From positions 155,161 to 219,160 of the forward strand of contig JALOQM010000001.1 of NCBI GenBank assembly GCA_025453495.1: 64,000 nucleotides of DNA. Reading direction: 5' to 3'. Positions 16,097 to 37,113 of this stretch are shown here, in pieces. Source of the DNA: Minisyncoccota bacterium. GTDB lineage: Bacteria > Patescibacteriota > Minisyncoccia > Phycocordibacterales > UBA9973. Positions within the stretch are counted from its first letter, which is position 1; each line of letters starts with the position of its first letter. Position numbers and translations under genes: made by a program. Below the pieces are notes generated by a model, which saw only the letters and a program-made list of their open reading frames with translations, had not been told where the DNA came from and made no database searches.

Positions 16097-16099
16097 TGG

Positions 16100-17015: not shown

Positions 17016-17039
17016 GCTTCTATTTTAACTTAAATATCT

Positions 17040-18016: not shown

Positions 18017-18024
18017 TCATTTGA

Positions 18025-18160
18025 TTTGCAATGACGAATAAAAGACTTTCTGTCCATACAGGCAGAAGGTCTTTTATTTTATGGCCTATTCCGTCATTCA
18101 CACTCGCTCAATGAAAATAAATTGTCATTTTGTCATTCAATGACGAGTAGATATAGGAGA
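18025..18160. promoter_or_regulatory. Cluster of AATGACG / CGTCATT repeats including a GTCATTCAATGAC palindrome (candidate operator) upstream of the ParB-methyltransferase operon
   Basis: gcAATGACGaat, cCGTCATTcac, tGTCATTttGTCATTcAATGACgag within about 130 bp. Confidence 0.4.
18041..18080 (+). terminator. Rho-independent terminator after 17267..18016
   Basis: AAAGACTTTCTG-TCCATACAGG-CAGAAGGTCTTT followed by TATTTT. Confidence 0.55.
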
Positions 18161-18190
18161 GTTTAATAAAACCCTCTCCTCAATCAACAC

Positions 18191-20222: not shown

Positions 20223-20226
20223 CCGT

Positions 20227-20601
20227 ATGCAGGGAGACGATTTTTCCAAGGATCCGTACAAGAAGCAGGTCTACGAAACCTACGCTCTTTGGAAGTCCCT
20301 CCCGTCATTTCTCAAAGGACAGCCGAGAGTCGCGCTTGAGAAGTTTGGCATTGAAGAAGAAGCGGTGTTTGAGCTGCTCTCGATAAAGACACAGCTTGAT
20401 TTCTCAAAGCGATACAACGTCGATACGGGCACGCTCAGTGACTGGAACAAGCGACTTGAAAAAGACGGACTTTCCAAAGACCTGAATGCATGGGCGCGCA
20501 AGCTCACGCCGAACGTCATCTTCGCTCTCTACAAGAACATCATCAAAGGCGGCCGGGCGCATGAAGTGCGAGCGTGGTTTGAGATCGTAGAACATCACTA
20601 A
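20227..20601 (+). CDS. Hypothetical protein (124 aa), translationally coupled
   Basis: Starts 5 nt after the methyltransferase stop; no recognisable motif. Confidence 0.4.
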   Translation: MQGDDFSKDPYKKQVYETYALWKSLPSFLKGQPRVALEKFGIEEEAVFELLSIKTQLDFSKRYNVDTGTLSDWNKRLEKDGLSKDLNAWARKLTPNVIFALYKNIIKGGRAHEVRAWFEIVEHH

Positions 20602-20602
20602 C

Positions 20603-20800
20603 ATGGAACCAATACAACTTGAAGAAATAAATACCATTCTCTCGGACACCCTCCGCAAGGTCGTGAACCGGGAGATATCGCTCAAGCAAGCATCCATGAT
20701 TGCCAAGCTTGCGATGACGCTCTCGAGAAACATCGCCAATACCGAGCTGAAGGATCGGGTCGAATTCCTCGAAAGCATGCTGCAAAAAACACGCATATGA
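20603..20800 (+). CDS. Hypothetical small protein (65 aa)
   Basis: Coupled start/stop with both neighbours. Confidence 0.35.
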   Translation: MEPIQLEEINTILSDTLRKVVNREISLKQASMIAKLAMTLSRNIANTELKDRVEFLESMLQKTRI

Positions 20801-22284: not shown

Positions 22285-22295
22285 AATCCAGATTC

Positions 22296-22715
22296 TTATC
22301 CAATTACAATATTTTCTCCATTACCAAATTCCATTTCTTTATACATAATCTCGCCTGATTCATTCTTCTTATAAGGAAGTGTGGCGGAAATTACTTTATT
22401 TTCAGCATCCTCCAGATGAATAGAAATTGCACCATCAGTATTTCCTGCATATAGATTCGCATTAAAAGCAATACCGAAAGCATGTAAATCATGTTCTTGC
22501 TTTTTTACTTGGAAACTCTGCATGAGAGAATCAATGACTTCTTTTGGGGTGGGATGTTTTTCTAAAAAATCATTTTCAACGGCAACTATTTCATCTTTTG
22601 AGTTTAAATACATACCGAACGGATAAAATTCACCATGTTGGATTAGCATTTTCTGAGCAAAAGGAACTAGAGCGTTTAGTAACTTATCAAGTTGTGTGCG
22701 TTCTTTTTCATTCAT
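22296..22715 (-). CDS. Candidate immunity protein for the RHS toxin
   Basis: 139-aa ORF overlapping the stop of the 2042-aa toxin gene by 4 nt, the typical toxin/immunity arrangement. Confidence 0.45.
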   Translation of the reverse strand: MNEKERTQLDKLLNALVPFAQKMLIQHGEFYPFGMYLNSKDEIVAVENDFLEKHPTPKEVIDSLMQSFQVKKQEHDLHAFGIAFNANLYAGNTDGAISIHLEDAENKVISATLPYKKNESGEIMYKEMEFGNGENIVIG

Positions 22716-22718
22716 GTT

Positions 22719-25700
22719 TTATTCACTTGTGCCAGAAAGGGCATTACCAATATTTTTCAATGTCGACTTTACACCTCCTAATGCGTTTTGCAAAGGGCCT
22801 GAGAGACGAGTATCCGGGCGAACGTGTAAATCAAGACTATAGTTTGCGTCTTTCGCATAACTTACAAAATCTTTCATTTGGTTTGTGTAATTCAGACGTG
22901 CAACATTTTTAACTTCCATGAGAGATTTTTTTGAGTGATCCAATCCATCGGGTATACGATAGCTAGCAGTTCCAGTAGCGGATTCTATTCTTTCAGTATT
23001 TTTTACAATACCGCTGGCAAGTTCGCCCGCTCTTCCTTTCGCTGCATTTTCGGCAATATCACCTAATACTTTACCTTTTGGCACTTCTCCTGCGGTAACA
23101 GCGCCAAGTATTGCCATAGGATAGTTTCCTTGCTTTGCATCAGTAATAGCTTGAGAAAGTCCGTATTGGCCAACAGGCGTTGTAAGTGATTGCAAGAATG
23201 ATGTAATTTGTGGAGCATTCATTGCGATATACGCCGCAGCAAAAATAAGTTCTCCTGCAAATTTACCACTTGCATCGCTCATCGTAATCGGATTATTCCT
23301 TCCGTATGAATAGCTGTTCAGTGACTGCGGATCGCTCAGGATACTCGTCATATCCCTGCCCGACAGTGCTTTTGTCGGTTTTTCGTCACCAATAGTTAAA
23401 AATACCGGATCCTGAGAAATAAACTTCCCAACATTCCCCTTGTAGTAACGCGCATTCAAGTAATCGAGTCCTGTATCGTTGTCATGAATCTGCCCCACAT
23501 ACTTTCTCTGTTCATTATACGCCCCAGACGAGATGCGGGATTCGCCGAATGGGTAATAATCGAGTTGCTGAGAAATTGCACCTGAGGCGTCAGTGACGGC
23601 GGTAGTTGAACCGAGGTGATCGGTATGGATATAATACGGCGTCACTGTGACCGTCGGATTAGTAACAGTTTCGATCGTGGCGACAAGGGTGCTTCCTGCA
23701 TAGACTTGCTTGGTCTTCTTCGTACCGTCATCGTTGTAATACTTGTTCGGGTATGAGATGTCAGTCGTGCCTGTAACATAGCGGACGCGGTTACCTTCGT
23801 GGTCGTACCAGTAGTTTGCGGTCACTGAGCCGTCAGTACTCGAAACAAGCTGATCGCGGTAGTTCCAGGTATGCGTGAACGTGCCGTCTGACGTCAGATT
23901 GCCGTCATTGTCGTACGTGCGAGTAATACTGTTAATTTTTGTCGCAGCATGCGGATTCGCATACCCGGTGCCGGCATAGACGTATGCGCCCGCTGGACCA
24001 GAGAGCAGATTGCCGAGCGCATCGTAAGCGAATGAATGCGTGTAGTCACCGCCGCTTGCCGTGCCGGTAATGACAGCGTCAGTCAGACGATAGAGTGCGT
24101 CATATGAATACGTAGCGGTCTTTGCAGTATCAGTATCGGATGCATCATCAAGTTCGGTGATATTGCCGACCGGATCATACACATATGCGAAATCCTGCAC
24201 ATGACGGGTCGAATTCGTCGTCAAACGATTGGTTAGGCGGTAGAGCGCTGAAGCAGCATAGGTGTTCATCGTCGTCACGCCGTTCGCATCATTCTGCGTC
24301 TGGACCTGATCCGTCGGACTGTAGTCGAAGTTAGTAATGAGCGCAGTGAACGTGCGCGCAGACGGTTCCCTACGATCAACTGATTCGAGCAAACCGGCAG
24401 TATTGTAGGTGTAGCGAATCTCGGACATATCGGGATAGACGACTGAGGATATATTCCCCTGTCGATCGTAGAACGTGGACGTCGTATAGGTGTTTCCGTT
24501 GATGACCTTGATTTCGTTGACGACCGTGCCTCTCGAATTGTAGAGGTAGGATGTGTCCGCTCCGAGAAGCATGGTCACTGAGCAGAGTTTGCCCGTACCA
24601 TTCGTGCAGCTTGAGTACGAATACGCAATATCCGTGTCGGTGGTTGCAGTGTTGTCTTCCGAAGTGACCTGATTGACGTCGTTATAGGCGTAGTTTGTCG
24701 TCAGTGCGTTCGGACTTACTGTCTGAATAATGTTTCCTGCATCGTCATACGTATATGTCCATATGCCATAGGTTGCATCAGACACAGCGTGCGTGTCTTG
24801 CGCAGTCAGACGACGATCGAGGCCGTCATACGTGAAATTGCGGACGTTCCCGAGCGCATCGGTTATCTTCGTAAGTTTGCCGTTCAAATTCCATTCGTAG
24901 TTCGTGGTATAAGCGCTTGCAGTCGCATAGAATTCGTCGACAGCGGACAAGTTCTCATATGCGTCGTGATAATAACGCTTCATGTTTCCTGCTGGATCAG
25001 TGACAGTGGTCATCCAGTCGTCGTAGGCATTCGTCGTCGTACCAACTGCGTTCGTCGATGTGAGTACGCGACCAATTGGGTCATATGCGTACGTAGTGTA
25101 GAGCGCCGTAGTGGTTGTCGGTGATGTACGAGCAGTACCCGTGCTTGTATAGCGGAGTGATTCTTTCAAGGTCTTGCCGCGAGCATCATATGCCTTATCG
25201 CTCACGTTGAAAGTATTTGATGCTTCCGCTTCTTTGCGCTCCTGGATCAGGCGACCGAGGCCGTCGAAGTACTGATAGGTATCTGCCGTTGTCGAGGTGT
25301 CGAGATAGTCGGTGCGCTGTACTTTTACCGCACCGGAAGTGTCGGTATATGCATATGCCGTTTTTGCAACTGGAGAATACGGTGAAGTACTATCGGGAAT
25401 TTTTTCAGTGAGCACGCGATCAAGGCCGTCATAAACAGTTTGGTAGACGAAGCTGTTCTGATCGGTCACCTGCTTCGGCTTGCCGAGCGAGTAGTCATAG
25501 ACATACTGCGTCGTATGTGAGAGCGGGTCGGTAACAGTTGTTGGGTAGAGATTATAGGTATCGTATGAATACGAGGTTACCTTTCCACGCGGATCGGTAT
25601 CAGAAGTGACAAGACCATATGAGTTATACGCTTTCTGACTATTAATGTAGGTTGTCGACGCTTTCCAATCTTCAACCTTAGTCTGATTACCTTTGTTTAC

Positions 25701-28700
25701 CGATCCATATGAAAGCGTATCGTAATAGTATTTCGACTCTTTGACGGTGGTGGAAGATGCGTCAGTCACTGTGCTGATCTTTGGCACCACCACTCGGGTC
25801 GTCGTGTTTGCCGCATACACATTTGTCGTGGTGCGCTTGTCGGAACCGGTATCAGTGAATGAGCCGTCTGATGCCACTGCATTTACCCTACCCCATTCGG
25901 TCTTCGTCAGGAGCGAGCCGTCCGTGTTGTCATAGGTATATTCGGTCGCAGTATCGGCATGATCTGAATCGCCATCATACGTCAGCACAGTCTGGCGCGC
26001 GAGCTTCACGAAATCGTGGTCAGTGCCGATGTTGTAGTGATCCCACTTATTGACCGTCAGGCGATAGAGATTGTTCGAGCTGTCACGTTCTTCGACACGG
26101 TACGGCTGACCTATTTTTGCAGGGATATCGTTGTATTCACCGTTTGATGTATCAGTGCCATTACCCTGGTGGTAAAAGGTCTTCGTGACATTGCCGACTT
26201 CATCGGTTGTCGTGACGATATTGAAGCCAGCGAGCGTTCTATGTCCGTCTGAGTAGTACTGATACTTGCCGTCCTGATACGAGTACTGTCTCGTTCCGGT
26301 CGTGCCGAATGCGTCGTTCGTCGTGATGTCTTTGACGACTGTTATGGACTGGGACGGACTTCGGGTTATCGGATTCTTGTCATTAATAGGCTGTTCCTTA
26401 TATGTAATGGACATCGAGCCGCCCGCAGGAGCAGTAATGGTTGAAAGATAATCGGATTTTGAACCGGTATTGAGCCAGACGGCATTTGGGTTCGTGATGT
26501 TTGTACTGTTGTTATAGGCAAATATCCAGTCTGGTAGTCCGTCGTTATTTAGATCAGAAAGTCTTGTGTCATAATCAAATCCTACCTGATTTCCATTTGG
26601 ATAGGTTGGCATGGTCCAGCTTGCAAGTAGCCAACCTGTCCCAGTACTAAGCCAAACCTTGTTAGGATTGATAGTGTTTGTGTTGTTGTTATAAGCATTT
26701 ATCCAATCTGGCAGATTATCTCCATTAATATCTGTAAGCTGGGTATCGTAGGCAAATCCGACATGATTACCATTTGTGTATGTAGGCATGGTCCAAGAAA
26801 CTGCTGTCCACCCAATTCCTGTATTCAGCCAGACAGTATTTGGACTGGCTGCTGTTGGGGAATTGTTGTCATATCCATGAATAAAGTCAACAAGACCATC
26901 GGCGTTTACGTCAATAAGTTTGTTCGTATAATGAAATCCAACCTGATTGCCTGTTAGATAAGTCGGCATCGTCCAACTTGCTGATGTCCAGCCAGAGCCG
27001 GTATTCAACCATACTGCATTCGGATTCGTGGTACTCGTATTATTATTAAAGGCATAAATAAAATCTGGAAGAATATCTCCGTTTATATCCACGAGTTGCG
27101 TGTTTGTATGAAACCCGACCTGATTGCCGCTTGGATATAGCGGCATGTTCCACGATGCGTTCGACCAGCCCGATCCAGTGTTAAGCCAGACCGTATTTGG
27201 GTTTACTGTGCTTGTATTGTTGTTGTAAGCATAGATCCAGTCAGGTAAACCATCTCCATTGAGATCGATCAACTGCGTATTTACTGTATGAAAACCTACC
27301 TGGTTACCACTTGGATAAGTCGGTATAGTCCATGATGCTGATGACCAACCCGATCCATTATTGAGCCAGACCGCATTCGGATTCGCGGTGCTTGTATTGT
27401 TATTATAAGCATAGATCCAATCGGGTAGACCATCGCCATTGAGATCAATCAACTGGGTATTCAAAGTATGAAAGCCCACTTGCCCGCCAGTTGGAAATGT
27501 CGGAAACGTCCATGACGCGAGCGACCAGCCAGATCCGGTATTAAGCCACACAGCGTTTGGATTCGTGGTGCTCGTATTGTTATTGAGCGCATACACGAAG
27601 TCCGGCAAATTATCACCGTTTACATCCACAAGCTGCGTTGCGGAAGCGAACCCTACTTGTCGGAGGTCCGGATAGACAGGCATCGTCCATGACGCGAGCG
27701 ACCATTCATCATCCACAGTCTGATAATCGAATGACATCGCCGGGAGTACCGTCGGCGTGCCGCTTTCGTCATAACCCGTTTCGGTAATTGAAGAAAGGAG
27801 CGAACGATTCTGGTTGTGTCCAGGTAGGTATACAAGGTCGTACTTGCGAGTATTTGTACCGTTAATTTTTGCAACAATGCTCGTAACAAGCGAAGCCGGA
27901 GCGACTGAGAAAGCAGGATTATAGACAGTCACGACATCGGGGCGCGAGCCTAACGTAAAGTCGATTTCGAAAATTCCGTCAGTGGTTCCAAAACCAGTGT
28001 AAAAAATCTTCGATGGATAAATCTGCCCTGCGCTTTTGGTATATTCATAGCGGACGAAGTTATCATTCGTATCGCGCGTCTCTTCAAGCATCCACTTATA
28101 GATATTTCCCGAGTTGTCTTGGCGAGCTTGGGCGTTTGCACCGAAGGTATATTTCACACCCTTTTTATCGGTTACCACCCATCCGTTGGAGACGCGTTCG
28201 TATCGCAAGAAATCTCCCTTTTCAGAACGAGGTGCGTAAAGATTTGATCCGAGCGGAACAAGCTCCCCAGAGAGAGATGACGAAAACACATCGCCTGTCG
28301 TATAGAGGTCTTCCGTACCGGTGCGATTGACGCGCTCGATGTATGGAATATTGACGGACCAGCCGTAGCCGACGACAGAGTCGTTAACTTGATTCTCGCT
28401 ATTGTACATAAGCGAGAGATCAGGCGTCATGTCATTTCTGCCTGGTGGAACCTGAATCTTGTAGGTATGGACGAATGCCCCTGTCAGGTTGTCGATTTCA
28501 GGAGAAAGCAATCCTTTTGAATCCTGCGGCGGAAGCGGATCAGGATCTACTTCTGGCGCTTGAGGGGCTGGCGGCTCTATCGGCGGAGCTGCTTGCTGGT
28601 TTTCTTCAGAAACCTGAGTTTCAGTTTCTTCGCTAACGGTTGGCGTCTCAGTCTGTACTTCTGGCTCAGGAGTTATAACAGTTTCCTGAGTTGCTTCCGT

Positions 28701-28847
28701 ATTCGCTGTTTCTTCAGCGAATACGGTCAGGACAGGAGAAAAAAAGATTGAAAATACAAGAACGCATACCGCCAGCTTCCTAAAAAGACCGGATGCTGAT
28801 AATGGGTTTTTTGCGATATGCATATATTGTTTTTCTTGTTTTAACAA
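22719..28847 (-). CDS. Giant secreted SpvB-domain / FG-GAP beta-propeller / RHS (YD-repeat) polymorphic toxin (Tc-toxin TcB-TcC-like fusion) with a variable C-terminal tip
   Basis: 2042 aa. Signal peptide, then a Pro/Glu-rich linker, then an SpvB-like region (...GYGWSVNIPYIERVNRTGTEDLYTTGDVF...). About eight repeats of VDxNGDxLPDxxYAYNNNTSTxNPNAVWLNTGSGW (FG-GAP-like). Many YD repeats (YTYDALGN, YAYDPIGR, FTYDGLDRR, YTYDDAGN...). An RHS-core-like DYYPFGESR...YYKGNVGKFISQDP...NNPITMSDASGKF. A C-terminal domain of about 200 aa containing IPDGLDH...EVKNV, a possible PD-(D/E)xK motif. Confidence 0.85.
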   Translation of the reverse strand: MLKQEKQYMHIAKNPLSASGLFRKLAVCVLVFSIFFSPVLTVFAEETANTEATQETVITPEPEVQTETPTVSEETETQVSEENQQAAPPIEPPAPQAPEVDPDPLPPQDSKGLLSPEIDNLTGAFVHTYKIQVPPGRNDMTPDLSLMYNSENQVNDSVVGYGWSVNIPYIERVNRTGTEDLYTTGDVFSSSLSGELVPLGSNLYAPRSEKGDFLRYERVSNGWVVTDKKGVKYTFGANAQARQDNSGNIYKWMLEETRDTNDNFVRYEYTKSAGQIYPSKIFYTGFGTTDGIFEIDFTLGSRPDVVTVYNPAFSVAPASLVTSIVAKINGTNTRKYDLVYLPGHNQNRSLLSSITETGYDESGTPTVLPAMSFDYQTVDDEWSLASWTMPVYPDLRQVGFASATQLVDVNGDNLPDFVYALNNNTSTTNPNAVWLNTGSGWSLASWTFPTFPTGGQVGFHTLNTQLIDLNGDGLPDWIYAYNNNTSTANPNAVWLNNGSGWSSASWTIPTYPSGNQVGFHTVNTQLIDLNGDGLPDWIYAYNNNTSTVNPNTVWLNTGSGWSNASWNMPLYPSGNQVGFHTNTQLVDINGDILPDFIYAFNNNTSTTNPNAVWLNTGSGWTSASWTMPTYLTGNQVGFHYTNKLIDVNADGLVDFIHGYDNNSPTAASPNTVWLNTGIGWTAVSWTMPTYTNGNHVGFAYDTQLTDINGDNLPDWINAYNNNTNTINPNKVWLSTGTGWLLASWTMPTYPNGNQVGFDYDTRLSDLNNDGLPDWIFAYNNSTNITNPNAVWLNTGSKSDYLSTITAPAGGSMSITYKEQPINDKNPITRSPSQSITVVKDITTNDAFGTTGTRQYSYQDGKYQYYSDGHRTLAGFNIVTTTDEVGNVTKTFYHQGNGTDTSNGEYNDIPAKIGQPYRVEERDSSNNLYRLTVNKWDHYNIGTDHDFVKLARQTVLTYDGDSDHADTATEYTYDNTDGSLLTKTEWGRVNAVASDGSFTDTGSDKRTTTNVYAANTTTRVVVPKISTVTDASSTTVKESKYYYDTLSYGSVNKGNQTKVEDWKASTTYINSQKAYNSYGLVTSDTDPRGKVTSYSYDTYNLYPTTVTDPLSHTTQYVYDYSLGKPKQVTDQNSFVYQTVYDGLDRVLTEKIPDSTSPYSPVAKTAYAYTDTSGAVKVQRTDYLDTSTTADTYQYFDGLGRLIQERKEAEASNTFNVSDKAYDARGKTLKESLRYTSTGTARTSPTTTTALYTTYAYDPIGRVLTSTNAVGTTTNAYDDWMTTVTDPAGNMKRYYHDAYENLSAVDEFYATASAYTTNYEWNLNGKLTKITDALGNVRNFTYDGLDRRLTAQDTHAVSDATYGIWTYTYDDAGNIIQTVSPNALTTNYAYNDVNQVTSEDNTATTDTDIAYSYSSCTNGTGKLCSVTMLLGADTSYLYNSRGTVVNEIKVINGNTYTTSTFYDRQGNISSVVYPDMSEIRYTYNTAGLLESVDRREPSARTFTALITNFDYSPTDQVQTQNDANGVTTMNTYAASALYRLTNRLTTNSTRHVQDFAYVYDPVGNITELDDASDTDTAKTATYSYDALYRLTDAVITGTASGGDYTHSFAYDALGNLLSGPAGAYVYAGTGYANPHAATKINSITRTYDNDGNLTSDGTFTHTWNYRDQLVSSTDGSVTANYWYDHEGNRVRYVTGTTDISYPNKYYNDDGTKKTKQVYAGSTLVATIETVTNPTVTVTPYYIHTDHLGSTTAVTDASGAISQQLDYYPFGESRISSGAYNEQRKYVGQIHDNDTGLDYLNARYYKGNVGKFISQDPVFLTIGDEKPTKALSGRDMTSILSDPQSLNSYSYGRNNPITMSDASGKFAGELIFAAAYIAMNAPQITSFLQSLTTPVGQYGLSQAITDAKQGNYPMAILGAVTAGEVPKGKVLGDIAENAAKGRAGELASGIVKNTERIESATGTASYRIPDGLDHSKKSLMEVKNVARLNYTNQMKDFVSYAKDANYSLDLHVRPDTRLSGPLQNALGGVKSTLKNIGNALSGTSE

Positions 28848-28961
28848 TCTTAATAATATGACTTGATTCTATATGTTAGACGCCAAAAGTAAACTGATCA
28901 GTCGACTCGAGTATATACATAAGTTCTAAAGGAAAACTAAAGTTTATGTGAAGTCCGACTC

Positions 28962-29765
28962 TTATTTTTCCTCTGCCTTATTGAGTATCAGGGAAATCAT
29001 CGCGAGCGGAACCTCATAATCACGAAGTTCAAGAATATATGGCGTCTCCTTTCCATCCTTGAAAATATGGAGGCCGTCTGAGCGAAGCTCAAGCGAACCG
29101 ATCTTCTTAAACGGGAATGAGAACTGCTTGCGATAACCAAGATAGCCGACGCGCTGATTCGTGATATAGAACACGCCAGAATCCTCCTTGTCCATGATCT
29201 CCTTGGAGACGCTTTGTACGCCTATCGATCCGACGCGGTATCGCACGCCTTTCATGATCTTTATCGAACCAGTAAAGCCGCCGTAGTTCACGCGCGTGGT
29301 GACTTTCTTGCGCTTCATCATGTCTGCGGCAATAGCCCAATGAAGTACCTCGTCTTCTTTGAACACGACATTCAGTTCAGCTTGCGCGTTTTCGATTGTC
29401 GGCAATATGCCCTTGTCTACGAGCGCAAGCGTATAATACTTGTTGAAATTGTCTTGGTTGAAGGCGATGTCGCTTTTCGTGAGACTGAAATGGTTGAGCA
29501 ATTTCTCAAGCGCATTCTTTTCGTCATCAGTGATCCGCTTGTCTGAACCCATAGCGGTAAAAACAGAAGCGACCGAGGTCTTATGGATTGCTTTCACATC
29601 GTCATCAGACAAACCAAACTCCTTTTGCATTTCCATGAGTTTCTCGCTTTCATCGAAGGTCAGTTCACTATCGGCAAGGAACGCTGTCATTGACTCTTGA
29701 TACTTCTTGAGTCCATCCCGTTTCTTTAGGTACCGTTTAACAAATCCGGGTAGATGTAGTTTCAT
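28962..29765 (-). CDS. Hypothetical protein (267 aa) upstream of the RHS toxin gene on the same strand
   Basis: ORF; 3-nt gap to the upstream membrane protein gene. Confidence 0.4.
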   Translation of the reverse strand: MKLHLPGFVKRYLKKRDGLKKYQESMTAFLADSELTFDESEKLMEMQKEFGLSDDDVKAIHKTSVASVFTAMGSDKRITDDEKNALEKLLNHFSLTKSDIAFNQDNFNKYYTLALVDKGILPTIENAQAELNVVFKEDEVLHWAIAADMMKRKKVTTRVNYGGFTGSIKIMKGVRYRVGSIGVQSVSKEIMDKEDSGVFYITNQRVGYLGYRKQFSFPFKKIGSLELRSDGLHIFKDGKETPYILELRDYEVPLAMISLILNKAEEK

Positions 29766-29767
29766 GG

Positions 29768-30385
29768 CTAGTTTATCTCTTCAACCTTAACCTCCCAATT
29801 TATTCCGCTGATAACCCGGATGTAATAACGGCCCGGAGCGATATTGCGGTATGTTGTCTGTCCTTCTCCTTGTTCGGATCCTTCGGTTGAGATGGAAAGA
29901 CCAGGTCCAATATAGCCGCCGTTTTCCTTTTCTAGGCTTATGCTCGAGAAACTGCCGACTGTTGAACCGGTAGTCGTTGCAGTAACGCGTACTTTCTTGC
30001 CCGTGATATTGAAAGACTCGGAATCTTGATTGCCTTTGCCTTTGAGTGAATACACTTCCGTGAAGACTTCCTCTTGAGGTGCGGATTTTTCGCTCGTTCC
30101 AGATTGAGAATCAATTACTTGGCGGGCTTCATCTATTGAACCTGATACGATTAGGCCTCCAATGATGAGAATGGCCGCGATGACGAATCGCGCCATGCCG
30201 GAGAAATTGATCTTGAGATATTTCTTGGTGAGCGTGTTGACGATTGGCAATAAAATGACTCCGGCGATGACGACGGCGACATGACCACTCGCAAGACCTG
30301 CGATGATAGTAAGTACGCCAAGGACCCAGAGAACAATTGAACCTGCTGAGACTGATTTAACGGTCTCGTTGTTTTCGTTATGCAT
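29768..30385 (-). CDS. Hypothetical membrane protein (205 aa)
   Basis: Two to three N-terminal TM helices, then an S/T/G-rich extracellular segment. Confidence 0.4.
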   Translation of the reverse strand: MHNENNETVKSVSAGSIVLWVLGVLTIIAGLASGHVAVVIAGVILLPIVNTLTKKYLKINFSGMARFVIAAILIIGGLIVSGSIDEARQVIDSQSGTSEKSAPQEEVFTEVYSLKGKGNQDSESFNITGKKVRVTATTTGSTVGSFSSISLEKENGGYIGPGLSISTEGSEQGEGQTTYRNIAPGRYYIRVISGINWEVKVEEIN

Positions 30386-30708
30386 ATTTTTCTAGCGGGT
30401 TTTTAATTTGGCGGGAATAACAAAAGACTCCCCGCCATCGCGATGGAAACCTTTCGGCCCCACCCGTACCCGTTTCCAGGTACGACCCGCTAGAGTGACT
30501 CTGACGAGGAGTCTTTTATTCTCTAGCGGGATTTTCGACCATATCCTTGGCGCAAACCAAGGGGTTAGGTCTCCTATTAAGTTGTAAAGCGATTATACCC
30601 TTTTTATAGGGTCGTCGCATCCTAGCTCGGATTAGGGAGTTTGTGTAGCGTACTTACCAACAAAGTGGATTAAGCGGACTGGACTTCGTAGGCCTTCTGA
30701 GTCATCCA
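30386..30708. ncRNA. GC-rich highly structured intergenic region (candidate cis-regulatory RNA or ncRNA)
   Basis: Three copies of TCTAGCGGG (two direct, one inverted as ACCCGCTAGAG), giving two mutually exclusive 10-bp pairings, one followed by ATTTT. A further 10-bp pairing AAAAGACTCC/GGAGTCTTTT. Local hairpins GGCGGG..CCCGCC, GTACC..GGTAC, CCTTGG..CCAAGG. Much higher GC than the flanks. Confidence 0.4.
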
Positions 30709-31035
30709 TTGGGTGTGGATGATATCGAGGCGATCATAGACGCCGCCAAGCATTTCAAATACGAGGAAACCGAAACTGCCTATGCCTTTAATCGAATCTC
30801 GCAACTTGCTGACTCGAAATCAAATCTGAAACGAGCGATCAAAGAGCGCGTTCGGCTTTTGTATGCCGCGTATATCTCTTTGGCTTCCTTTATTCCCGAC
30901 GAGGATGTCGACTACATGCTTGGGTTATACGGAAGGCGTACACAAAAGCGATCCGCTAGAATTGTGGCGCGGGTGATGAAAGAGATGGAGGTGCTTGAAA
31001 AAGAAATTCGGAAGTTTAATCCTTTATCTAATTAA
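30709..31035 (+). CDS. Hypothetical protein (108 aa)
   Basis: ORF downstream of the structured region. Confidence 0.35.
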   Translation: MGVDDIEAIIDAAKHFKYEETETAYAFNRISQLADSKSNLKRAIKERVRLLYAAYISLASFIPDEDVDYMLGLYGRRTQKRSARIVARVMKEMEVLEKEIRKFNPLSN

Positions 31036-31060
31036 AATTTGAAATTAATACTCCTTCATT

Positions 31061-31945
31061 TTATATTCCCAAATCACCAAGGGCATCCTCCAGTAAAGGA
31101 ATGATGTCTTTGAAATACACCCTTAACTTTTTTAGGTCGTTAGCGCCATTTGCTCTTCTTTTAATATTTTCCCATTCTTTACGTAGTAAGTACTCATCTC
31201 CAGATAGATTGGTGAGGTTAAAAGACATCTTATCTATGATGTAACTTTTTTCTATTTTCTTATTTAGAAATATTACAGGATAATTTGAATCATCCCAGAA
31301 AAGGAGTTCGTAGGCTGTCGCCACCCCTTTCGAGCCGTTTACTCCCATAACAACTTCAGACCCCTGCGCAAAAAATCTATGTTCAAAATCCTCCCACATT
31401 GCTGGGGTAAATGATTTTGAATCCATTTCTTGCAAGAGTACATTTTCTATAAAGGATGAGAGAGTTTGATAAGCAAAAGTCACTAGTTTTTCGTCTCTTT
31501 TATCATCGGGATTTTTATCTGCGTGAAATAGATTATTTCTGACTTCATACCAGAACTCCACAACATTCATAAAGTCATTCTCGTCAGCAATTTTACCTTG
31601 ATTATCTAGACCGGCTCTGTGATGATAACTCGCATTATTCCACCAACCATTTCCAGTTGTCATCGGTTCTCTTTGTAGGTAGTTGATGAGGTCTATCAAT
31701 CTTTCTTTGTAATCTGGCTCACCATTTATAAAAGCAGTCCATCTTGCTTGATATGTCTCATCGTTTTTGAAATGTTGTATATACGAGCGTTCTTTTGTAT
31801 TCCCAGAAGCTACCTCGATGTCTTGTTTGGAATATTTATATTTTTTCAAAAAAGCTTCAAAGGCGAGATACTCAAAAACATATCGAGAAAAATAATCTTC
31901 TTTCGCCTTTTCGTGCCAATTTCTTATAAGGGAGATATCTGTCAT
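31061..31945 (-). CDS. HEPN-like (Rx4H) domain protein, possible Abi-type defence protein
   Basis: Probable start MTDISLIRNWHEK; ...EVRNNLFHADKN... matches the HEPN R-x4-H motif; AT-rich. Confidence 0.4.
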   Translation of the reverse strand: MTDISLIRNWHEKAKEDYFSRYVFEYLAFEAFLKKYKYSKQDIEVASGNTKERSYIQHFKNDETYQARWTAFINGEPDYKERLIDLINYLQREPMTTGNGWWNNASYHHRAGLDNQGKIADENDFMNVVEFWYEVRNNLFHADKNPDDKRDEKLVTFAYQTLSSFIENVLLQEMDSKSFTPAMWEDFEHRFFAQGSEVVMGVNGSKGVATAYELLFWDDSNYPVIFLNKKIEKSYIIDKMSFNLTNLSGDEYLLRKEWENIKRRANGANDLKKLRVYFKDIIPLLEDALGDLGI

Positions 31946-32169
31946 GTAAGTTGATCGCTTTAAGCATTCGCAAGGCAACTATATCATGCGTAGACAGGAC
32001 TAAAAAGACGATGGAATTTCTTGATTTTTAGGCATTTCGGTTACCAACAGCTACCACTCGGGACGCTCTGGACTCCTAAAAGGCATTGCGTCATTCATGT
32101 AGGTGTATGAACTATACACAAACACAAGCGCCATTAGGGACGACGGCCAAAGTAGTCGTTCCAATCAAA

Positions 32170-33438
32170 ATGAAATACTGCCTTTATGCGAGAAAGTCGA
32201 CAGAGTCGGAAGAGCGGCAGGTACTCAGTATCGACAGTCAAATCAAGGAGATGCTCCAATTAGCAGAGCGCGAAGGACTTGAGATCGTGACGATGAAGCG
32301 CGAAAGCCACTCTGCCAAGGAAACAGGCCAGCGGCCGGTCTTCAACGAGATAATACAGGAACTACATCAAGGAAAGTTCAACGGTATCCTGACATGGGCA
32401 CCAGATCGCATAAGCAGAAATGCTGGCGACCTGGGCAAGATCGTCGACCTCATGGATGCAGGAAAATTACACCAGATACGCACCTTCGGACAGACGTTCG
32501 GCAACAATCCAAATGAGAAATTCCTGCTCATGATTTTAGGCTCGCAGGCCAAGCTCGAAAACGACAACCGAGGCATTAATGTCAAACGTGGGCTGCGAAC
32601 CCGGGTAGAGATGGGCTTATGGCCGGGCATGGCACCGCTCGGCTACCTAAATCAGAAGATGCTCGACAGGAAGTGCCAGATCGCCGTCGATCCCGACCGC
32701 GCCCCGATCGTTCGCAAAATGTTCGAAAAAGTAGCATATGAAGGATGGAGTGGACGGAAGGTCTACAACTGGCTTAGATTTGATCTGAACTTCCATACCA
32801 GAGGCAACAGGCCGCTGACGCTCTCGGGAGTGTATCGAATATTCAATATGCCAATCTATTACGGACCATTTGAATACCCGAGAGACTCCGGCAATTGGTA
32901 CGACGGCAAGCATGAGCCGATCATAACTAAGGAGTTATATGAAAAAGCGCAGGAACAGCTCAAACGTGACAAGATCGTCCGAGAGAATCGAGAGTTTGCA
33001 TTCACTAAGCTATTTACCTGCGGTATGTGTGGCTCAGGCATATCGGCACAGGAGAAATACAAGGAACTGAAAGATGGCACGAATGCCAAGTACGTCTACT
33101 ACTCATGCTCGAAAGCGCGAGACCGAAACTGCAAAAACAAGTATATTCGTGAGGAAGAACTGATCGAGGAGCTACTTAAGATCATCGACAAACTAAACAT
33201 TAATGAATTAGGGATGAGAATGAAGCTTGAGGAGGAAATCAAGCGATTCAATAGACTTCAGAGGCTTGCAACGAAAGGAACGCCCAAGTACAACATCAAC
33301 GAAGATGACGTGAATACAAGAGAGTATGCCAAGTATGTGCTACGAGAAGGAACGCCACTTGAGAAGCGAGAGTTGATGGGTCATCTGAGGAGTAGACTGT
33401 TGCTGAAGGACAAGAAGATTACGCTACTTGATCAATAA
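32170..33438 (+). CDS. Large serine recombinase (resolvase/invertase N-domain, recombinase domain and zinc ribbon)
   Basis: Internal start MKYCLYARKSTESEERQ (catalytic Ser region); ...RISRN...; GINVKRGLRTRVEMG; Cys cluster CGMCGS...YYSCSK; C-terminal coiled coil. Upstream 32050-32075 carries TACCACTCGGGACGC. Confidence 0.85.
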   Translation: MKYCLYARKSTESEERQVLSIDSQIKEMLQLAEREGLEIVTMKRESHSAKETGQRPVFNEIIQELHQGKFNGILTWAPDRISRNAGDLGKIVDLMDAGKLHQIRTFGQTFGNNPNEKFLLMILGSQAKLENDNRGINVKRGLRTRVEMGLWPGMAPLGYLNQKMLDRKCQIAVDPDRAPIVRKMFEKVAYEGWSGRKVYNWLRFDLNFHTRGNRPLTLSGVYRIFNMPIYYGPFEYPRDSGNWYDGKHEPIITKELYEKAQEQLKRDKIVRENREFAFTKLFTCGMCGSGISAQEKYKELKDGTNAKYVYYSCSKARDRNCKNKYIREEELIEELLKIIDKLNINELGMRMKLEEEIKRFNRLQRLATKGTPKYNINEDDVNTREYAKYVLREGTPLEKRELMGHLRSRLLLKDKKITLLDQ

Positions 33439-34420
33439 AATAAGCTTTAAACTCATCCGAGTAGAAGGTAAATTCATTGTAGCTCTCAGCAAACTTTTTA
33501 TTTGTAACATACACGTCCATTGGTTGAGCGTTTGTGTCTATAACAACACAATTAGCTTGATTATTTGTAATAAATGGGAGCTTTCTGCTGTTCCATGCAT
33601 CATATGCAAGGTGTTCTGAATCCGCATTACCAAAGAGTGTAAGCTTGGGCTTAAGCACATCAAGAAAATCATATGACCTGTCTGATTTTCGTCCATGGTG
33701 AGGAGCGATAAGTACGTCAATATCTTTTACATCATCACTATGGTTTTTGAGAATATGATCCCATGTTTTATCGTGGGAATCTCCAGCAAGAAGAATTTTG
33801 CCACCCTTTGAACGGTACAAGATGACATAGGAAGAATCATTATAATCCTCTGCGTCATTTCCTTCTTCAACCAACTTCTTAGTCGGAGATAGGATATATA
33901 ATCCGTCGCCACCACCTTTGCCATTCTCATCATGATTATAATGATGACCTCTTGACCCAGAATAAAGAACGAGTCGTCGAGGGTCACTTTGCGGGTTTTC
34001 ATCACGCATCTTCTTGTAAAACTCCCAATCTTCTGGATCATAAGGGCTACCTTCTTCAAATTCCTTTTCGCATGTATTGTCTGTATCCCAAAAGTTCTGA
34101 GGTTTAAAAATATCAAATAAGACCTTGATCCCTGACATATGATCCATGTCGGGGTGTGTCAAAATAAATCTAAAAACTTTATCCACGCCAAATTCCTTTA
34201 AGTATCTTATTGGATTTACGGGCAATGACTTCTGATTGAAATTACCAGAAACACTTAGTGTTTCAACAACTGCCTCTCTAACGATTTTTTTGAGCTCGTA
34301 GTTCTTTTCATCAGCAATTGCGCTACCGTTACAGATATCGAAAACACTTACATGTCCTGAGGGGTGTTGAATAATCGAGCAATCACCATTCTTAACATTT
34401 AAAAAGTGAAATACTCCCAT
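33419..34420 (-). CDS. Metallo-beta-lactamase-fold protein of the ComEC/Rec2 C-terminal-domain type
   Basis: 333 aa; N-terminal ...FLNVKNGDCSIIQHPSG...; THPDMDHMSG (HxHxDH-like) and LIAPHHGRKSD are typical of ComEC-type metallo-beta-lactamase domains. Confidence 0.6.
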   Translation of the reverse strand: MGVFHFLNVKNGDCSIIQHPSGHVSVFDICNGSAIADEKNYELKKIVREAVVETLSVSGNFNQKSLPVNPIRYLKEFGVDKVFRFILTHPDMDHMSGIKVLFDIFKPQNFWDTDNTCEKEFEEGSPYDPEDWEFYKKMRDENPQSDPRRLVLYSGSRGHHYNHDENGKGGGDGLYILSPTKKLVEEGNDAEDYNDSSYVILYRSKGGKILLAGDSHDKTWDHILKNHSDDVKDIDVLIAPHHGRKSDRSYDFLDVLKPKLTLFGNADSEHLAYDAWNSRKLPFITNNQANCVVIDTNAQPMDVYVTNKKFAESYNEFTFYSDEFKAYFIDQVA

Positions 34421-34425
34421 AGTTT

Positions 34426-35121
34426 TTATTTACCTACATATTCTTGAAAAAGAGAGCGAGCGTATCTCTTTCCGTGATTATGAATTAGTTTTTTATTCAA
34501 AAGCATCAGGAACAGATACGCCAGTGCCATGGCAAGTGAAAGATAGTATGCCGCATGGATGTCTTTAACTAGAGAGAATACAAACATGTTTATAATAGAG
34601 ACAAATACAGAAATAACCGAACATCCGATCAAGTTTCTTATAAACCCGTATTCAATATTTCTCGACAGCAATAGTCGACCATCTTTCAGCGAATGACGAA
34701 TAAGCGTTACTGCTTCAGCAATCGCTTTTCTTGCCTCGGTTTCGTTTCGGATCTCTTCATCGGGAATAAAAATTTGGATGTTATAGTCAACCTTTATTTT
34801 GTCATGAATTTTTTGCTTGAATTGTAGCGTGTACTCACTGTTAGAATGTAAGAGAAAATCTGTTGTGGGCATTCTAGTCTCATCTCGACTAAACCAAGTT
34901 GACTCATAGAGGTCTTTACCTATAGATCTTCCAATAAATGAAAGTAGTATTAGAAAGACAACGGGGGTGGATATGTCGCCGACCCAGCTCACTCCAAAAA
35001 TTAGTTTGAAGAAACCAGACAAATGGTCGTTGAGGAAAAAGAAATAAAGAACTAGAAAAGGAAAGGATGCGAGTATTGCAGGAAGGATTCTTGCCTGAAT
35101 TGTATATTGGTTGAGTTTCAT
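34426..35121 (-). CDS. Hypothetical polytopic membrane protein (231 aa)
   Basis: Two N-terminal and two C-terminal TM segments; lies between the two metallo-beta-lactamase-fold genes with 3-5-nt gaps. Confidence 0.4.
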   Translation of the reverse strand: MKLNQYTIQARILPAILASFPFLVLYFFFLNDHLSGFFKLIFGVSWVGDISTPVVFLILLSFIGRSIGKDLYESTWFSRDETRMPTTDFLLHSNSEYTLQFKQKIHDKIKVDYNIQIFIPDEEIRNETEARKAIAEAVTLIRHSLKDGRLLLSRNIEYGFIRNLIGCSVISVFVSIINMFVFSLVKDIHAAYYLSLAMALAYLFLMLLNKKLIHNHGKRYARSLFQEYVGK

Positions 35122-35123
35122 AT

Positions 35124-36179
35124 TTATTCTTCTACATAATCATGGAATGGCTCCTGTACTGCAGGACCCCATCCTTGTCGGGTGGGAGCGAGATGTGGAT
35201 GACAAAGCGTCATATTTTTAGTTACATATACAAGTGCGCCATACTTTTTGAGTCCGTTGATGACCTTCTTCGATGGGTGTTTATCTGAGTTTTGAGGCGC
35301 AGAAATCGAAGCTATTACTCCGTTTATCCTTTTGAGAACTTTACTACTCATATTTCGCTTACTGCCATGATGAGGAACATCGAGCAGATTTAGTCCTGTG
35401 AGAACTATACCCTTGGTGTCTGCGTAGTCTGCAGCCAGATGGAGTGCCGTTTTACCTGCATCTCCAGTGAAAAGGATCTTATGTCCGTCTATGTTCAAAA
35501 AGACAATTGCACTTGAATTATTTTCTGCGGAGGTTGAATCCGTGTCATCATCAAGAAGATCGATGTGGATAAAATCCTGAATTTTCTTTGCAACGGTCTC
35601 GATCGCTCTTACAGCGGGCGCTAAAAATCCCAAGGCGGCAACAGGCTCTGGGGTAGAACGGAAATGAGCAAGAAGACCCTGATAATATTCCTTCGATGGA
35701 CCAAGTACGTGCAGTGCATCATTGAATCCAGTAACACCCTGAAACGGTTCAACGATTTGGACACCTTTCTTCTTTGCAATTGCCTCAAGATCACTCGCAT
35801 GTTGCAGAGCTTTTTCCAATTTATCACTCAAGCCAGAGGATGTGATACGCCCGTTAACGAAATGCTTTTTAATATCTTCTGCATGTTCCCATGGCCTGTG
35901 CATAGCTAGAGTAGTTACATTGAGTTTTTCTAGGACAACAGTGAGTCCAGACGCGTGATCGGCATCAGGATGGGTACAGAATACAACGTCGACAATTTCT
36001 GTGCCGTAGTATGTTTTGATGTGATTAACAAGTGTCTCTCCAGACTCTTTTGTTCCTCCGTCGATTACGATAACAGTTTGCTCTGTTCTTGGGCCTGTCA
36101 GGTTTCCGAAGCGAAGTGCGATAGCGTCGCCTCCTTTTTCTCCTTCTCCTACAGGAATGTAGTCAATTTCATAAGCCAT
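35124..36179 (-). CDS. Metallo-beta-lactamase-fold protein of the ComEC/Rec2 C-terminal-domain type (paralogue of 33419..34420)
   Basis: 351 aa; VIDGGTKESGE...VDVVFCTHPDADHASGL...LLDVPHHGSKRNMSS. Confidence 0.6.
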   Translation of the reverse strand: MAYEIDYIPVGEGEKGGDAIALRFGNLTGPRTEQTVIVIDGGTKESGETLVNHIKTYYGTEIVDVVFCTHPDADHASGLTVVLEKLNVTTLAMHRPWEHAEDIKKHFVNGRITSSGLSDKLEKALQHASDLEAIAKKKGVQIVEPFQGVTGFNDALHVLGPSKEYYQGLLAHFRSTPEPVAALGFLAPAVRAIETVAKKIQDFIHIDLLDDDTDSTSAENNSSAIVFLNIDGHKILFTGDAGKTALHLAADYADTKGIVLTGLNLLDVPHHGSKRNMSSKVLKRINGVIASISAPQNSDKHPSKKVINGLKKYGALVYVTKNMTLCHPHLAPTRQGWGPAVQEPFHDYVEE

Positions 36180-36191
36180 ATAAAGTTAGTG

Positions 36192-36812
36192 CTAAAATTT
36201 TGGTAATACTGACACGACAACTCCTTGGATATGAAAATCATCCGTAAGAATTATTGGCTGATGAGTGGGGTTTGTCGATTTTGGCTTCAGCATTACAAAA
36301 TCACCTTGAGGATGATACTCCTTAACGGTAGCGTCATCATCTATAAGAGCTACGACTTTTTGACCAGGATCAGCTGAGGACTGTTGCTTCACCAGAAGCA
36401 AGTCTCCGTCGTTGATGCCAGCTTTATTCATAGAGTCGCCATTTGCACGAAGTAGGAAGTACTTTGATCCTGGCTTCACCATACTTACAGAAACTGGGAT
36501 CATAGCTTCGACATTTTCTTCGGCAAGCATAGGCGCGCCACAGGATACACTTCCAATCAAGGGAAGCGAGATGGTTCGGGCCACGATACCTTCTCTTAGG
36601 TCTTTAATGAACTGAAGGGTGCCGTCGGTCTTTTTCTTTAGAAATCCTCCAGACTCAAGTTCTTCGAGAAGCAACATCGCTGATCGAGGAGACTTATAAT
36701 CCAAAGCATCCATCAGCTTTCTGACAGAGGGAACCTTTCCGAAATGCATCACGTTGTTGCGGATGAACTTCAGGGCTTCACGTGCTTTTTGGCTTAACTC
36801 TTTGTCACTCAT
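36192..36812 (-). CDS. lexA: LexA-type repressor (wHTH plus S24 peptidase)
   Basis: 206 aa; C-terminal GDSM (Ser nucleophile) and a downstream Lys (VKEYHP); N-terminal HTH. Confidence 0.8.
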   Translation of the reverse strand: MSDKELSQKAREALKFIRNNVMHFGKVPSVRKLMDALDYKSPRSAMLLLEELESGGFLKKKTDGTLQFIKDLREGIVARTISLPLIGSVSCGAPMLAEENVEAMIPVSVSMVKPGSKYFLLRANGDSMNKAGINDGDLLLVKQQSSADPGQKVVALIDDDATVKEYHPQGDFVMLKPKSTNPTHQPIILTDDFHIQGVVVSVLPKF

Positions 36813-36830
36813 GATACAAAGTGTATCATA
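36811..36830. promoter_or_regulatory. Perfect 7-3-7 palindrome TGATACA-AAG-TGTATCA overlapping the lexA start codon (candidate LexA box)
   Basis: Seen directly; TTGACT (-35-like) about 35 nt upstream on the coding strand. Confidence 0.4.
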
Positions 36831-36960
36831 CTGTATACTTAAAAGTCAATAACGTAAAAGAGCGACACTGATCGCTCTTTTTGCTACAACCATGAAGCCT
36901 TGTGGGTCGCGCTACCTCCTTAGGCAGTCGGGATACAAAACTAACAGGTTGTCAATGCGG

Positions 36961-37048
36961 AGGAGGTGAGATTCGAACTCACGGACCACGTAAATGGTCT
37001 CCTGTTTTCAAGACAGGTGCCTTCAACCACTCAGCCACTCCTCCGTAT
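36961..37048 (-). tRNA. tRNA-Ser (anticodon TGA), class II with long variable arm
   Basis: Minus strand GGAGGAGTGGCTGAGTGGTTGAAGGCACCTGTCTTGAAAACAGGAGACCATTTACGTGGTCCGTGAGTTCGAATCTCACCTCCTCCG. Confidence 0.85.
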
Positions 37049-37113
37049 AGGCAGAGCTTAACAGAAAACCCCCTTGAAATCAAAGCTGATTTCAAGGGGG
37101 TTTTCTTAGGGGT

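Follow-up and report, generated by a model that had tools for sequence, protein, structure and literature searches.

The 64,000-nucleotide (nt) stretch analyzed here, which we call the window, comes from a Minisyncoccota bacterium of the Patescibacteria (GenBank assembly GCA_025453495.1, contig JALOQM010000001.1, positions 155,161 to 219,160). It contains a 19,850-bp element that carries a gene for a large serine recombinase and is integrated beside an intact tRNA-Ser gene, and five small gene units with the same ends and no recombinase lie to its left. We consider it likely that together they form an island anchored at tRNA-Ser, which would have been built by site-specific integration, through the serine recombinase, of elements sharing both end modules. 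The underlying system appears to be undescribed; no account of it was found in the literature searched on Patescibacteria and the candidate phyla radiation, the coverage of which was incomplete. A first-pass annotation had taken a 9-mer upstream of the recombinase gene, CCACTCGGG, as a possible attachment site of the enzyme and had proposed a cassette system driven by a serine recombinase. The clue was coincidental, yet the hypothesis it prompted is largely right in outline.

The Recombinase-Bearing Element and Its Boundaries

The integrated element occupies positions 17107-36956 (plus strand), and its backbone and both of its junctions are shared with relatives (loci L043-L050, L052, L054, and L056-L069 of our comparison set). 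Its left end begins with the core GCGG at 17107-17110 and continues as D3f (TACTCGGGTATGGTACCC...GGGTCGGGG; 17107-17201, plus strand), the variant of the D3 module that is found in recombinase-bearing elements. Its right end is a D6 module of the recombinase-element type (GTGGGTCGC..AGTCGGGATACAAAACTAACAGGTT..; 36900-36956, plus strand). Next to D6 stands an intact tRNA-Ser(tga) gene (36957-37044, minus strand), the integration target. The GCGG read on the plus strand at 36957-36960 corresponds to tRNA nucleotides 71-74 (CCGC) and is the common core. From left to right, the element consists of D3, a gene for a 243-amino-acid (aa) protein, a ParB-methylase gene, a methylase gene, genes for 124-, 65-, and 495-aa proteins, Rhs toxin cargo, a LOOT RNA, the recombinase gene, MBL-fold and LexA-like genes, and D6. 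In the window, as in relatives, TTTTTGAAAATGAGAC follows D3f and leads into the 243-aa, ParB-methylase, methylase, and 495-aa backbone. The constancy of this backbone was read from the contexts of three recombinase homologues. In the closest relatives (L043-L050), the order is a 250-aa protein, ParB-methylase, methylase, and 124-, 64-, and 495-aa proteins, with 265- and 206-aa proteins encoded on the other strand, then the LOOT RNA, variable cargo, the recombinase, and more genes. The genes at 34.4-36.1 kb of the window (231-aa and MBL-fold) recur in L054, a related viral-catalogue contig.

The right junction could be placed by comparing one element, with an identical recombinase protein, in four genomic contexts. 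Its sequence is identical up to ...GTTCTTAGT / ...ACCAGGTTCTTAGT and then GCGGAG, after which come four different tRNA-Ser genes (gga twice, cga, and gct) and unrelated host genes. L052, the recombinase of which is 78% identical, has the same tRNA-Ser arrangement at its right end, and the same right-end pattern was present in 4 of 11 relatives from IMG/VR, with tRNA-Ser as the sole tRNA type nearby. For the left junction, an identical 249-aa backbone protein occurs in at least four left contexts; from GCGGTGTACTCGGGTATGG... / GCGGTGTACTCGGGTATGGTACC (a D3 variant) onwards, all of them share one sequence on the right, and the DNA ahead of GCGG is unrelated. The two sets of comparisons together identify D3 and D6 as the two element ends and GCGG as their shared core, so that a circle would carry D6-GCGG-D3. 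This order is also that of every internal junction in the arrays. The element boundaries, the 4-nt core at tRNA nucleotides 71-74, the survival of an intact tRNA gene after insertion, and the element-borne nature of D3 and D6 are all established by such alignment of sequences. To delimit the exchange, the junction comparisons leave only the 4-nt shared core GCGG. Look-ups of exact proteins, aimed at an empty site or strain polymorphism, returned one other strain only, with the same arrangement.

The Large Serine Recombinase

The recombinase gene (32107-33438, plus strand) encodes 443 aa with Resolvase, Recombinase, and Zn_ribbon_recom domains and a catalytic-serine motif, YARKST. The start at 32107 is the gene call in the source metagenome, and an alternative ATG lies at 32170. 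The N-terminal resolvase catalytic domain matches PF00239 (E=2.3e-19), with the Y-x-R-x-S nucleophile motif in CLYARKSTESEERQ at residues 25-38; C-terminal to it are matches to PF07508 (E=5.8e-14) and PF13408 (E=1.4e-9). The best NCBIfam match is CcrB, at 123 bits against an equivalog cut-off of 900, followed by CcrA (64.5 against 700) and CcrC (61.9 against 900), so that the protein falls outside the Ccr equivalogs. It shares 75-95% identity with more than 120 protein clusters, of which those with a named source come from different Patescibacteria lineages. An association of this recombinase family with tRNA-Ser is seen in at least 10 independent contexts.

A tyrosine recombinase domain (Phage_integrase) was sought and was absent from approximately 40 open reading frames (ORFs) of the window and from the families listed for 205 neighbor ORFs (25 families listed per scan). 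The backbone proteins were also screened for a hidden recombinase, and Pfam, PHROGs, NCBIfam, and PDB profile searches of them came back empty. The predicted folds of the 243-aa and 495-aa backbone proteins match no recombinase, nor anything else. This large serine recombinase is the only recognizable recombinase of the element family, and we infer from the sequence comparisons that it is the integrase of the element.

The Junction Modules D3 and D6

Between 12.3 and 17.3 kb, seven unrelated genes lie on the minus strand, separated by spacers of 155-250 nt that hold two modules each, D6 and D3. D6 is about 55 nt long (..GGGTCGC..(C)ACTCGGGTCA.GCCGATA..GTT.....) and D3 about 97 nt (GCGGGC.ACTCGGGTTCAGTACCAG...GTAAGGGTATT...GAGGTATGTGGGTCGGGG.); four clear and two degenerate copies of D3 are present in the window. 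About 150 nt of the ends are conserved, including three direct boxes that co-vary. In our reading of the alignments, D3 resembles an antisense tRNA-Ser gene in the regions of the T arm, the variable arm, and the anticodon loop. Downstream of the tRNA-Ser gene, 57 nt (36900-36956) are a copy of D6, and the similarity of unit b, one of the small units described below, to the tRNA-Ser side continues into the tRNA acceptor and T arm (p <= 0.002). D3 therefore takes the place of an antisense tRNA-Ser gene beside D6. The first-pass annotation had noted the second end motif, GTGGGTCGC, close to tRNA-Ser; the D6 copy there is genuine, but the motif lies at 36902-36910, 47 nt from the 3' end of the tRNA-Ser gene, and not at about 36880 and 80 nt away. 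A second copy of GTGGGTCGC lies at 15659.

A comparison of 37 D3 junctions shows that conservation starts exactly at GCGG: pairwise identity, 0.32 over the 20 nt on the left side, rises to 0.80 on the right. To the left of this GCGG is either D6 or unrelated host DNA, the latter often with a terminator hairpin. Dyad symmetry around GCGG is weak by eye (a TACCA/TGGTA pair in the recombinase-type sites) and was not used as evidence.

The modules show no propensity to fold. Single-stranded DNA folds gave z-scores of -1.2 to +1.6 on both strands, with no hairpin, and an alignment of 34 copies had no consensus structure (alifold -3 and -1 kcal/mol). Rfam had no relevant match at E<=5 in 12000-17600 and none at the D3 sites of 15 loci, and ARAGORN did not call D3 as a tRNA. 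Since the modules have no fold and no Rfam match and no tyrosine recombinase was found in the window, they are not attC sites; an attC or integron reading of the repeats was rejected, with no hairpin on either strand and no IntI. Three other identities for D3 were tried and set aside. As a structured RNA, it has no Rfam match and no consensus fold, and a small GGTG/CACC hairpin is inconsistent across copies. As a coding sequence, it has one frame open in the consensus, but 1-nt indels and the pattern of variation speak against this. As a displaced host tRNA fragment, it would not be expected to be identical across different host contexts, which it is, so that it travels with the element.

Recombinase-Less Units in the Array

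The five units to the left of the element (12448-17106) measure 574-1325 bp and have the same ends as the element without a recombinase; all have their genes on the minus strand. Unit a (12448-13251) consists of D3a (12454-12543), with a degenerate core, genes for 83- and 128-aa proteins, and D6 (13218-13251). Unit b (13252-14251) has a degenerate, tRNA-Ser-like D3b with its core GCGG at 13252 and a class A beta-lactamase-like gene (13344-14195). Unit c (14252-15576) comprises D3c (14252-14347), a gene for an FAD oxidoreductase (14353-15486), and D6 (15523-15576). Unit d (15577-16150) comprises D3d (15577-15671) and a gene for a 138-aa protein with a tRNA-Thr_ED domain, and unit e (16151-17106) comprises D3e (16151-16245), a gene for a 253-aa protein with weak, sub-threshold ADP-ribosyltransferase similarity, and D6 (17050-17106). 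Units c, d, and e have intact GCGG cores and full D3 modules, with D6 clear in c and e and weak in d, and the one gene in each ends within a few nt of D3. Units without a recombinase also adjoin a recombinase unit in L059.

The protein of unit b belongs to the class A beta-lactamase family (PF13354, E=5e-44; 13344-14195, minus strand), a resistance-like gene in an apparent mobile cassette of a Patescibacteria genome. The module of unit b (13252-13343, plus strand) begins GCGGAGAGCGTCGTGTTAGAACTAAC and is nearer to the antisense 3' half of tRNA-Ser than to D3; it may be the relic of a former tRNA-Ser-side junction within the array.

Distribution in Patescibacteria

The core pattern of D3 has exact matches in 21 species-representative genomes and 14 metagenome contigs, from groups that include Saccharibacteria, Paceibacteria, Nomurabacteria, Taylorbacteria, and Parcubacteria; D3 patterns were absent from IMG/VR. 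A profile search revealed same-orientation arrays of two or three D3 copies at many loci. At no fewer than 11 loci, D3 shares its orientation with a tRNA-Ser gene, of whatever anticodon, and lies 0.5-2.2 kb downstream of it; many tRNA-Ser genes have D6 abutting their 3' end. In the syntenic relative L009, one cassette alone, for a 148-aa protein, separates D3 from the same tRNA-Ser. Another single-gene cassette, for a 230-aa protein and with both D3 and D6, is 79-84% identical in three genomes; one of the three has it beside tRNA-Ser(cga) and another beside tRNA-Ser(tga). Among the families listed for the surroundings of 31 arrays, no recurrent tyrosine integrase was found.

The Flagged 9-mer and the Recombinase Leader

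The motif that the first-pass annotation placed just upstream of the recombinase gene is indeed there: CCACTCGGG occupies 32054-32062 (plus strand), 45 nt upstream of the called start at 32107 and 108 nt upstream of the alternative ATG at 32170. It lies in a 161-nt gap between a minus-strand gene (31061-31945) and the recombinase gene. Part of this gap, 32040-32106 (plus strand), is a conserved non-coding leader of the recombinase gene that aligns across five diverged elements. Its blocks in the window are GTTACCAAC (32040-32048), GGGACGCTCTGGACTCCTA (32060-78), and TTGCGTCAT (32086-94), and a GGGACGCTCTGGACTCC block is also within it; the alignment of the five leaders gives the conserved blocks as GTTAYCAAC, GGGAYGCTCTRGACTCCTA, and TTGCGTCAT. 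After the leader blocks comes an N-terminal extension in which the variation is by in-frame indels only. The leader block is single-copy within the window and is probably regulatory; consensus promoter scans of the leader and of the junctions gave nothing above background. GGGACGC in the leader resembles GGGTCGC of the right arm, but 7 nt are too few to interpret. A search for upstream motifs at distant recombinase homologues (L026 and L036) led nowhere, as those genes directly follow another ORF and have no leader.

The 9-mer itself sits in a variable stretch of the leader and outside the junction-repeat family. Exact CCACTCGGG has four copies in the window, all on the plus strand, against 0.06 expected from shuffles, an expectation that overstates the surprise because the motif was picked post hoc; 70 G+C-rich 9-mers (about 35 reverse-complement pairs) have at least four copies in the window. 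Of the three other copies, the one at 15544 is in a junction module and those at 12987 and 25790 are within coding sequence. The 7-mer ACTCGGG occurs 11 times against 3.5 expected. The first-pass claim that the same core starts the intergenic modules gave coordinates that were right within a few bases; the full 9-mer, however, is present only at 15544, and the modules at 13218, 14258, 15590, and 17110 have just the ACTCGGG 7-mer in common with the 32054 site. When 31979-32169 was compared with every junction module and with the tRNA-Ser flank, Smith-Waterman alignment found no similarity past the 9-10-mer (best p about 0.06), and local alignment matched 9-10 nt of the 32054 site in one module only. 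At the position of the 9-mer, the homologous leaders read GGCTCGTGGG, AGCTCTCGGG, CCTACTTGGG, or GGAAGTGGG. The six bases ahead of GGG, CCACTC in the window, are GGCTCG, AGCTCT, CCTACT, and GGAAGT in the four other leaders, and the identity of the 9-mer with the end-module box is therefore confined to this genome.

These results bear directly on the notion that the recombinase keeps its attachment site beside its own gene, with 32040-32080 pairing with the junction repeats through the CCACTCGGG core. The exact match with the module at 15544, its rarity by shuffling, and the conservation among elements of the region around it speak for such a role. However, the similarity ends after 9-10 nt, CCACTC differs in four of four homologous leaders, the leader block has no second copy in the window, and two of the four copies of the 9-mer are inside genes. 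The site is also internal to the element mapped at 17107-36956, in contradiction to the mapped junctions; the attachment sites are 15 kb to its left (17107) and 4.9 kb to its right (36957). We give this explanation hardly any credence. The match between the 9-mer and the end-module box is a coincidence, and 32054 is not a recombination site. Recombinase-bearing relatives were also checked for absence of the repeats, which the annotation had regarded as contrary to its hypothesis; they carry the repeats, at the element ends.

A Proposed Mechanism and the Alternatives to It

In the mechanism that we propose, the circular form would join its ends as attP, in the order D6-GCGG-D3, and attB would be the 3' end of any tRNA-Ser gene (flank-GCGG-tRNA), a gene of which D3 is a diverged antisense look-alike. 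The serine recombinase would carry out the attP x attB reaction, with the exchange point presumably within GCGG. Integration would keep the tRNA intact, with D6 becoming its new trailer, and would put D3 at the far end, beside the displaced host flank. Recognition of attB may be mainly through the invariant half formed by the acceptor and T arm, which would account for the use of every isoacceptor and for the wide host range. Later arrivals may recombine with the tRNA-side junction; because substrates and products of that reaction would be of the same kind, it would be reversible without a directionality factor. Units that lack a recombinase would presumably be mobilized in trans, as is thought for the pseudo-SCC (psiSCC) units next to the staphylococcal cassette chromosome mec (SCCmec). 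A broader version, which we put forward only tentatively, is that Patescibacteria have a phylum-wide, integron-like system of gene capture run by a conserved serine recombinase that docks at tRNA-Ser 3' ends. Such a recombinase would represent a family of serine integrases with specificity for tRNA genes. Its attP would mimic a whole tRNA-Ser gene, single-gene cassettes would be captured, stacked, and exchanged in trans, and the LOOT RNA and the 243-aa and 495-aa proteins may be accessory or directionality factors that read the three boxes.

Several points weigh against integration by the serine recombinase. For canonical large serine recombinases, an attP of about 50 bp suffices, there are no arm repeats, and attP does not recombine with attR. 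The conserved ends of about 150 nt, the three co-varying direct boxes, and the tandem arrays are more typical of tyrosine integrases, and such long ends with three boxes keep a tyrosine recombinase or an accessory factor alive as an alternative. For most D3 arrays, the 8 kb examined contained no recombinase gene, and the 9 kb downstream of three more distant recombinase relatives (57-60% identity) lack tRNA-Ser. The backbone proteins of 265/267, 205/206, and 124 aa are uncharacterized. The left contexts come from short metagenome contigs, where mis-joining at repeats is possible in principle, and no circular attP junction was present in the locus sequences compared. The Islander database paper of 2014 stated that serine integrases were not known to target tRNA genes.

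It could be, then, that D3 and D6 are the substrates of some other recombinase encoded elsewhere, such as a tyrosine integrase or an Xer-like enzyme, and that the serine recombinase is a passenger or has another function. Tyrosine integrases are marked by the targeting of tRNA genes, by direct repeats in long attP arms, and by tandem arrays; arm-type sites are established for lambda-type integrases, and the scarcity of serine recombinases within 8 kb of the arrays fits as well. Yet an element with constant ends moves between genomes in the company of the serine recombinase, no tyrosine recombinase being detectable on it; the link of the recombinase family to tRNA-Ser holds in those 10 or more independent contexts; and no tyrosine integrase recurs beside the 31 arrays. 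We regard this explanation as quite unlikely. Better placed, though still rather unlikely in our judgment, is the possibility that the recombinase integrates full-length elements only and that the units at 12448-17106 are deletion remnants of old insertions. Units a and b, with their degenerate cores or degenerate D3, would suit such a history, as would the fact that canonical serine integrases do not target attR. Against it, units c, d, and e keep an intact GCGG, a full D3, and one gene that ends a few nt from D3; the same single-gene unit has the same boundaries in three genomes at different tRNA-Ser isoacceptors; and small units are often found elsewhere in arrays of two or three.

The high conservation of D3 across the phylum, its likeness to tRNA-Ser, and its position between co-oriented genes might instead point to a role as RNA, be it the product of a functional RNA gene or a cis-regulatory segment; a tRNA-like D3 would then punctuate transcripts and not serve as a recombination site. 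D3 has no stable or conserved fold on either strand (single-sequence z about 0), no Rfam match, and no ARAGORN call, and its conservation begins exactly at the GCGG junction, so that we consider an RNA role very improbable. Site-specific integration by the serine recombinase at tRNA-Ser is the explanation that we prefer. Of the first-pass proposal of a serine-recombinase cassette system in place of an integron, the comparative part stands, supported by the element ends, the absence of attC-like structure, and the lack of any tyrosine integrase in the scans; catalysis by the recombinase and mobility of the cassettes are what we infer.

Comparison with Known Systems

The closest analogue is SCCmec and other SCC elements of Staphylococcus with their Ccr recombinases. 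There, too, insertion is at the 3' end of a single conserved gene and is the work of a large serine recombinase, with short direct repeats bounding the units. Tandem composite SCC islands include psiSCC units that lack a recombinase, and units a-e are similar in that they are bounded by the same repeats and lie beside a recombinase unit. The differences are considerable, however. The target here is the tRNA-Ser 3' end and not rlmH (orfX), there is one recombinase gene and not ccrAB, and the CcrB match is 123 bits against the cut-off of 900. The units are as small as single genes of 0.6-1.3 kb, the long conserved ends (about 150 nt) mimic the target gene, and the hosts are Patescibacteria.

With islands at tRNA and tmRNA genes (the Islander signature) and with tycheposons, the system shares a tRNA gene target that is left intact, a tRNA-like distal end, tandem arrays, and cargo-only units in variable islands. 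Of the features in the Islander signature, the intact gene is tRNA-Ser, and the tRNA-Ser-like sequence at the distal end, D3, is carried by the element itself and is no fragment displaced from the host. In contrast to the present elements, on which no tyrosine integrase was found, Islander islands and tycheposons use such enzymes: 910 of 937 elements in the tycheposon study had a tyrosine recombinase, and the Islander database paper knew only tyrosine integrases to target tRNA genes. In those elements, a copied 3' fragment also rebuilds the tRNA, whereas the exchange here would be in the last 4 nt and D3 takes no part in restoring the gene. Integrons are similar in their arrays of mostly single, co-oriented, unrelated genes, separated by repeats and anchored at a fixed site. 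Unlike with integrons, no IntI or other tyrosine recombinase was found with the present arrays, and the anchor is a tRNA gene and not attI; the attC hairpins conserve structure and not sequence, while the repeats here do not fold and are about 80% conserved in sequence. The phage large serine integrases (phiC31, Bxb1, A118, and TP901-1) have the same domain architecture, the catalytic motif, and a very short shared core. The present system differs in a recombinase gene that lies apart from the attachment site, a tRNA-gene target shared by a whole phylum, long conserved arms, products in tandem arrays, and a protein that is 75-95% identical across distant lineages.

LOOT RNA, Cargo, and Neighboring Features

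The element carries a LOOT RNA (RF03000) at 30446-30571 on the minus strand, with 81.5 bits against a gathering threshold of 46.4. It is present in most of the scanned relatives of the element family (L024 644-765, L043 6640-6772, L052 2091-2227, L056 9924-10044, L071 6275-6396, and L074 9702-9823). Wherever both are in one locus, the LOOT RNA is antisense to the recombinase gene, and the closest relatives have it just past the conserved pair of 265- and 206-aa genes. Two backbone proteins deserve mention. The 243-aa protein (17285-18016, plus strand) is directly beside the left end, D3, in all related elements and is a candidate accessory or directionality factor. The prediction of its N-terminal half is poor and that of its C-terminal domain (residues ~125-243) is confident, with no known fold or family matched. 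For the conserved 495-aa protein (20797-22284, plus strand), Pfam, PHROGs, NCBIfam, and PDB gave no sequence match; a mostly helical structure was predicted for it with confidence (pLDDT 88.8, pTM 0.80) and has no counterpart among solved structures (best Foldseek E=0.12, TM<=0.12).

The largest cargo gene (22296-28847, minus strand) encodes a 2042-aa protein with SpvB, RHS-repeat, and TEN_YD-shell regions and a C-terminal Tox-REase-7 domain, and tandem repeats of about 180 nt lie inside it at 26461-27704. Judging by position only, a 139-aa ORF downstream of this toxin gene may be an immunity gene. At its right end, the element finishes with a gene for a LexA-like repressor (LexA_DNA_bind and Peptidase_S24; 36192-36850, minus strand), and the short palindromes GATACAAAGTGTATC and ATACTGTATAC overlap the start region of this gene, which suggests control of the element by DNA damage. 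In related elements (L052 7163-8609 and L064 ~12549), the cargo includes genes like those of diversity-generating retroelements (bAvd and RVT_1), Shedu (SduA_C), an aminoglycoside phosphotransferase (APH), and a Transposase_mut gene.

Other features lie close to the junctions. A probable bidirectional terminator, formed by a perfect inverted repeat of 20 nt (AGAAAACCCCCTTGAAATCA / TGATTTCAAGGGGGTTTTCT; 37063-37106), lies just past tRNA-Ser on its 5' side. In L011, an RNA of about 130 nt with a very strong fold (-54.5 kcal/mol, z=-5.7) lies just left of D3 (3230-3365, plus strand); its 5' and 3' ends are tRNA-Ser-like, a terminator follows it, and neither ARAGORN nor Rfam calls it. Sequences containing TTCGAATCC are also found upstream of D3 in L008, L009, L014, L020, and L031, with the fold computed for L011.

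Significance

Genomes of Patescibacteria are tiny, and few of their mobile elements have been characterized. The 3' ends of tRNA-Ser genes offer a single, easily recognized hotspot, where defense genes, toxins, methylases, and resistance-like genes are stacked, the last represented here by the class A beta-lactamase-like cassette. The signature of GCGG and D3 at one end and D6 and GCGG-tRNA-Ser at the other delimits mobile DNA in the metagenome-assembled genomes of this phylum, and the orphan LOOT RNA motif gains a genomic context. For a compact serine integrase of 443 aa, the comparison suggests a defined attP/attB pair, with a target that is conserved across bacteria, which may be of interest for genome engineering. 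If the proposed mechanism is true, the targeting of tRNA genes would extend to serine integrases.

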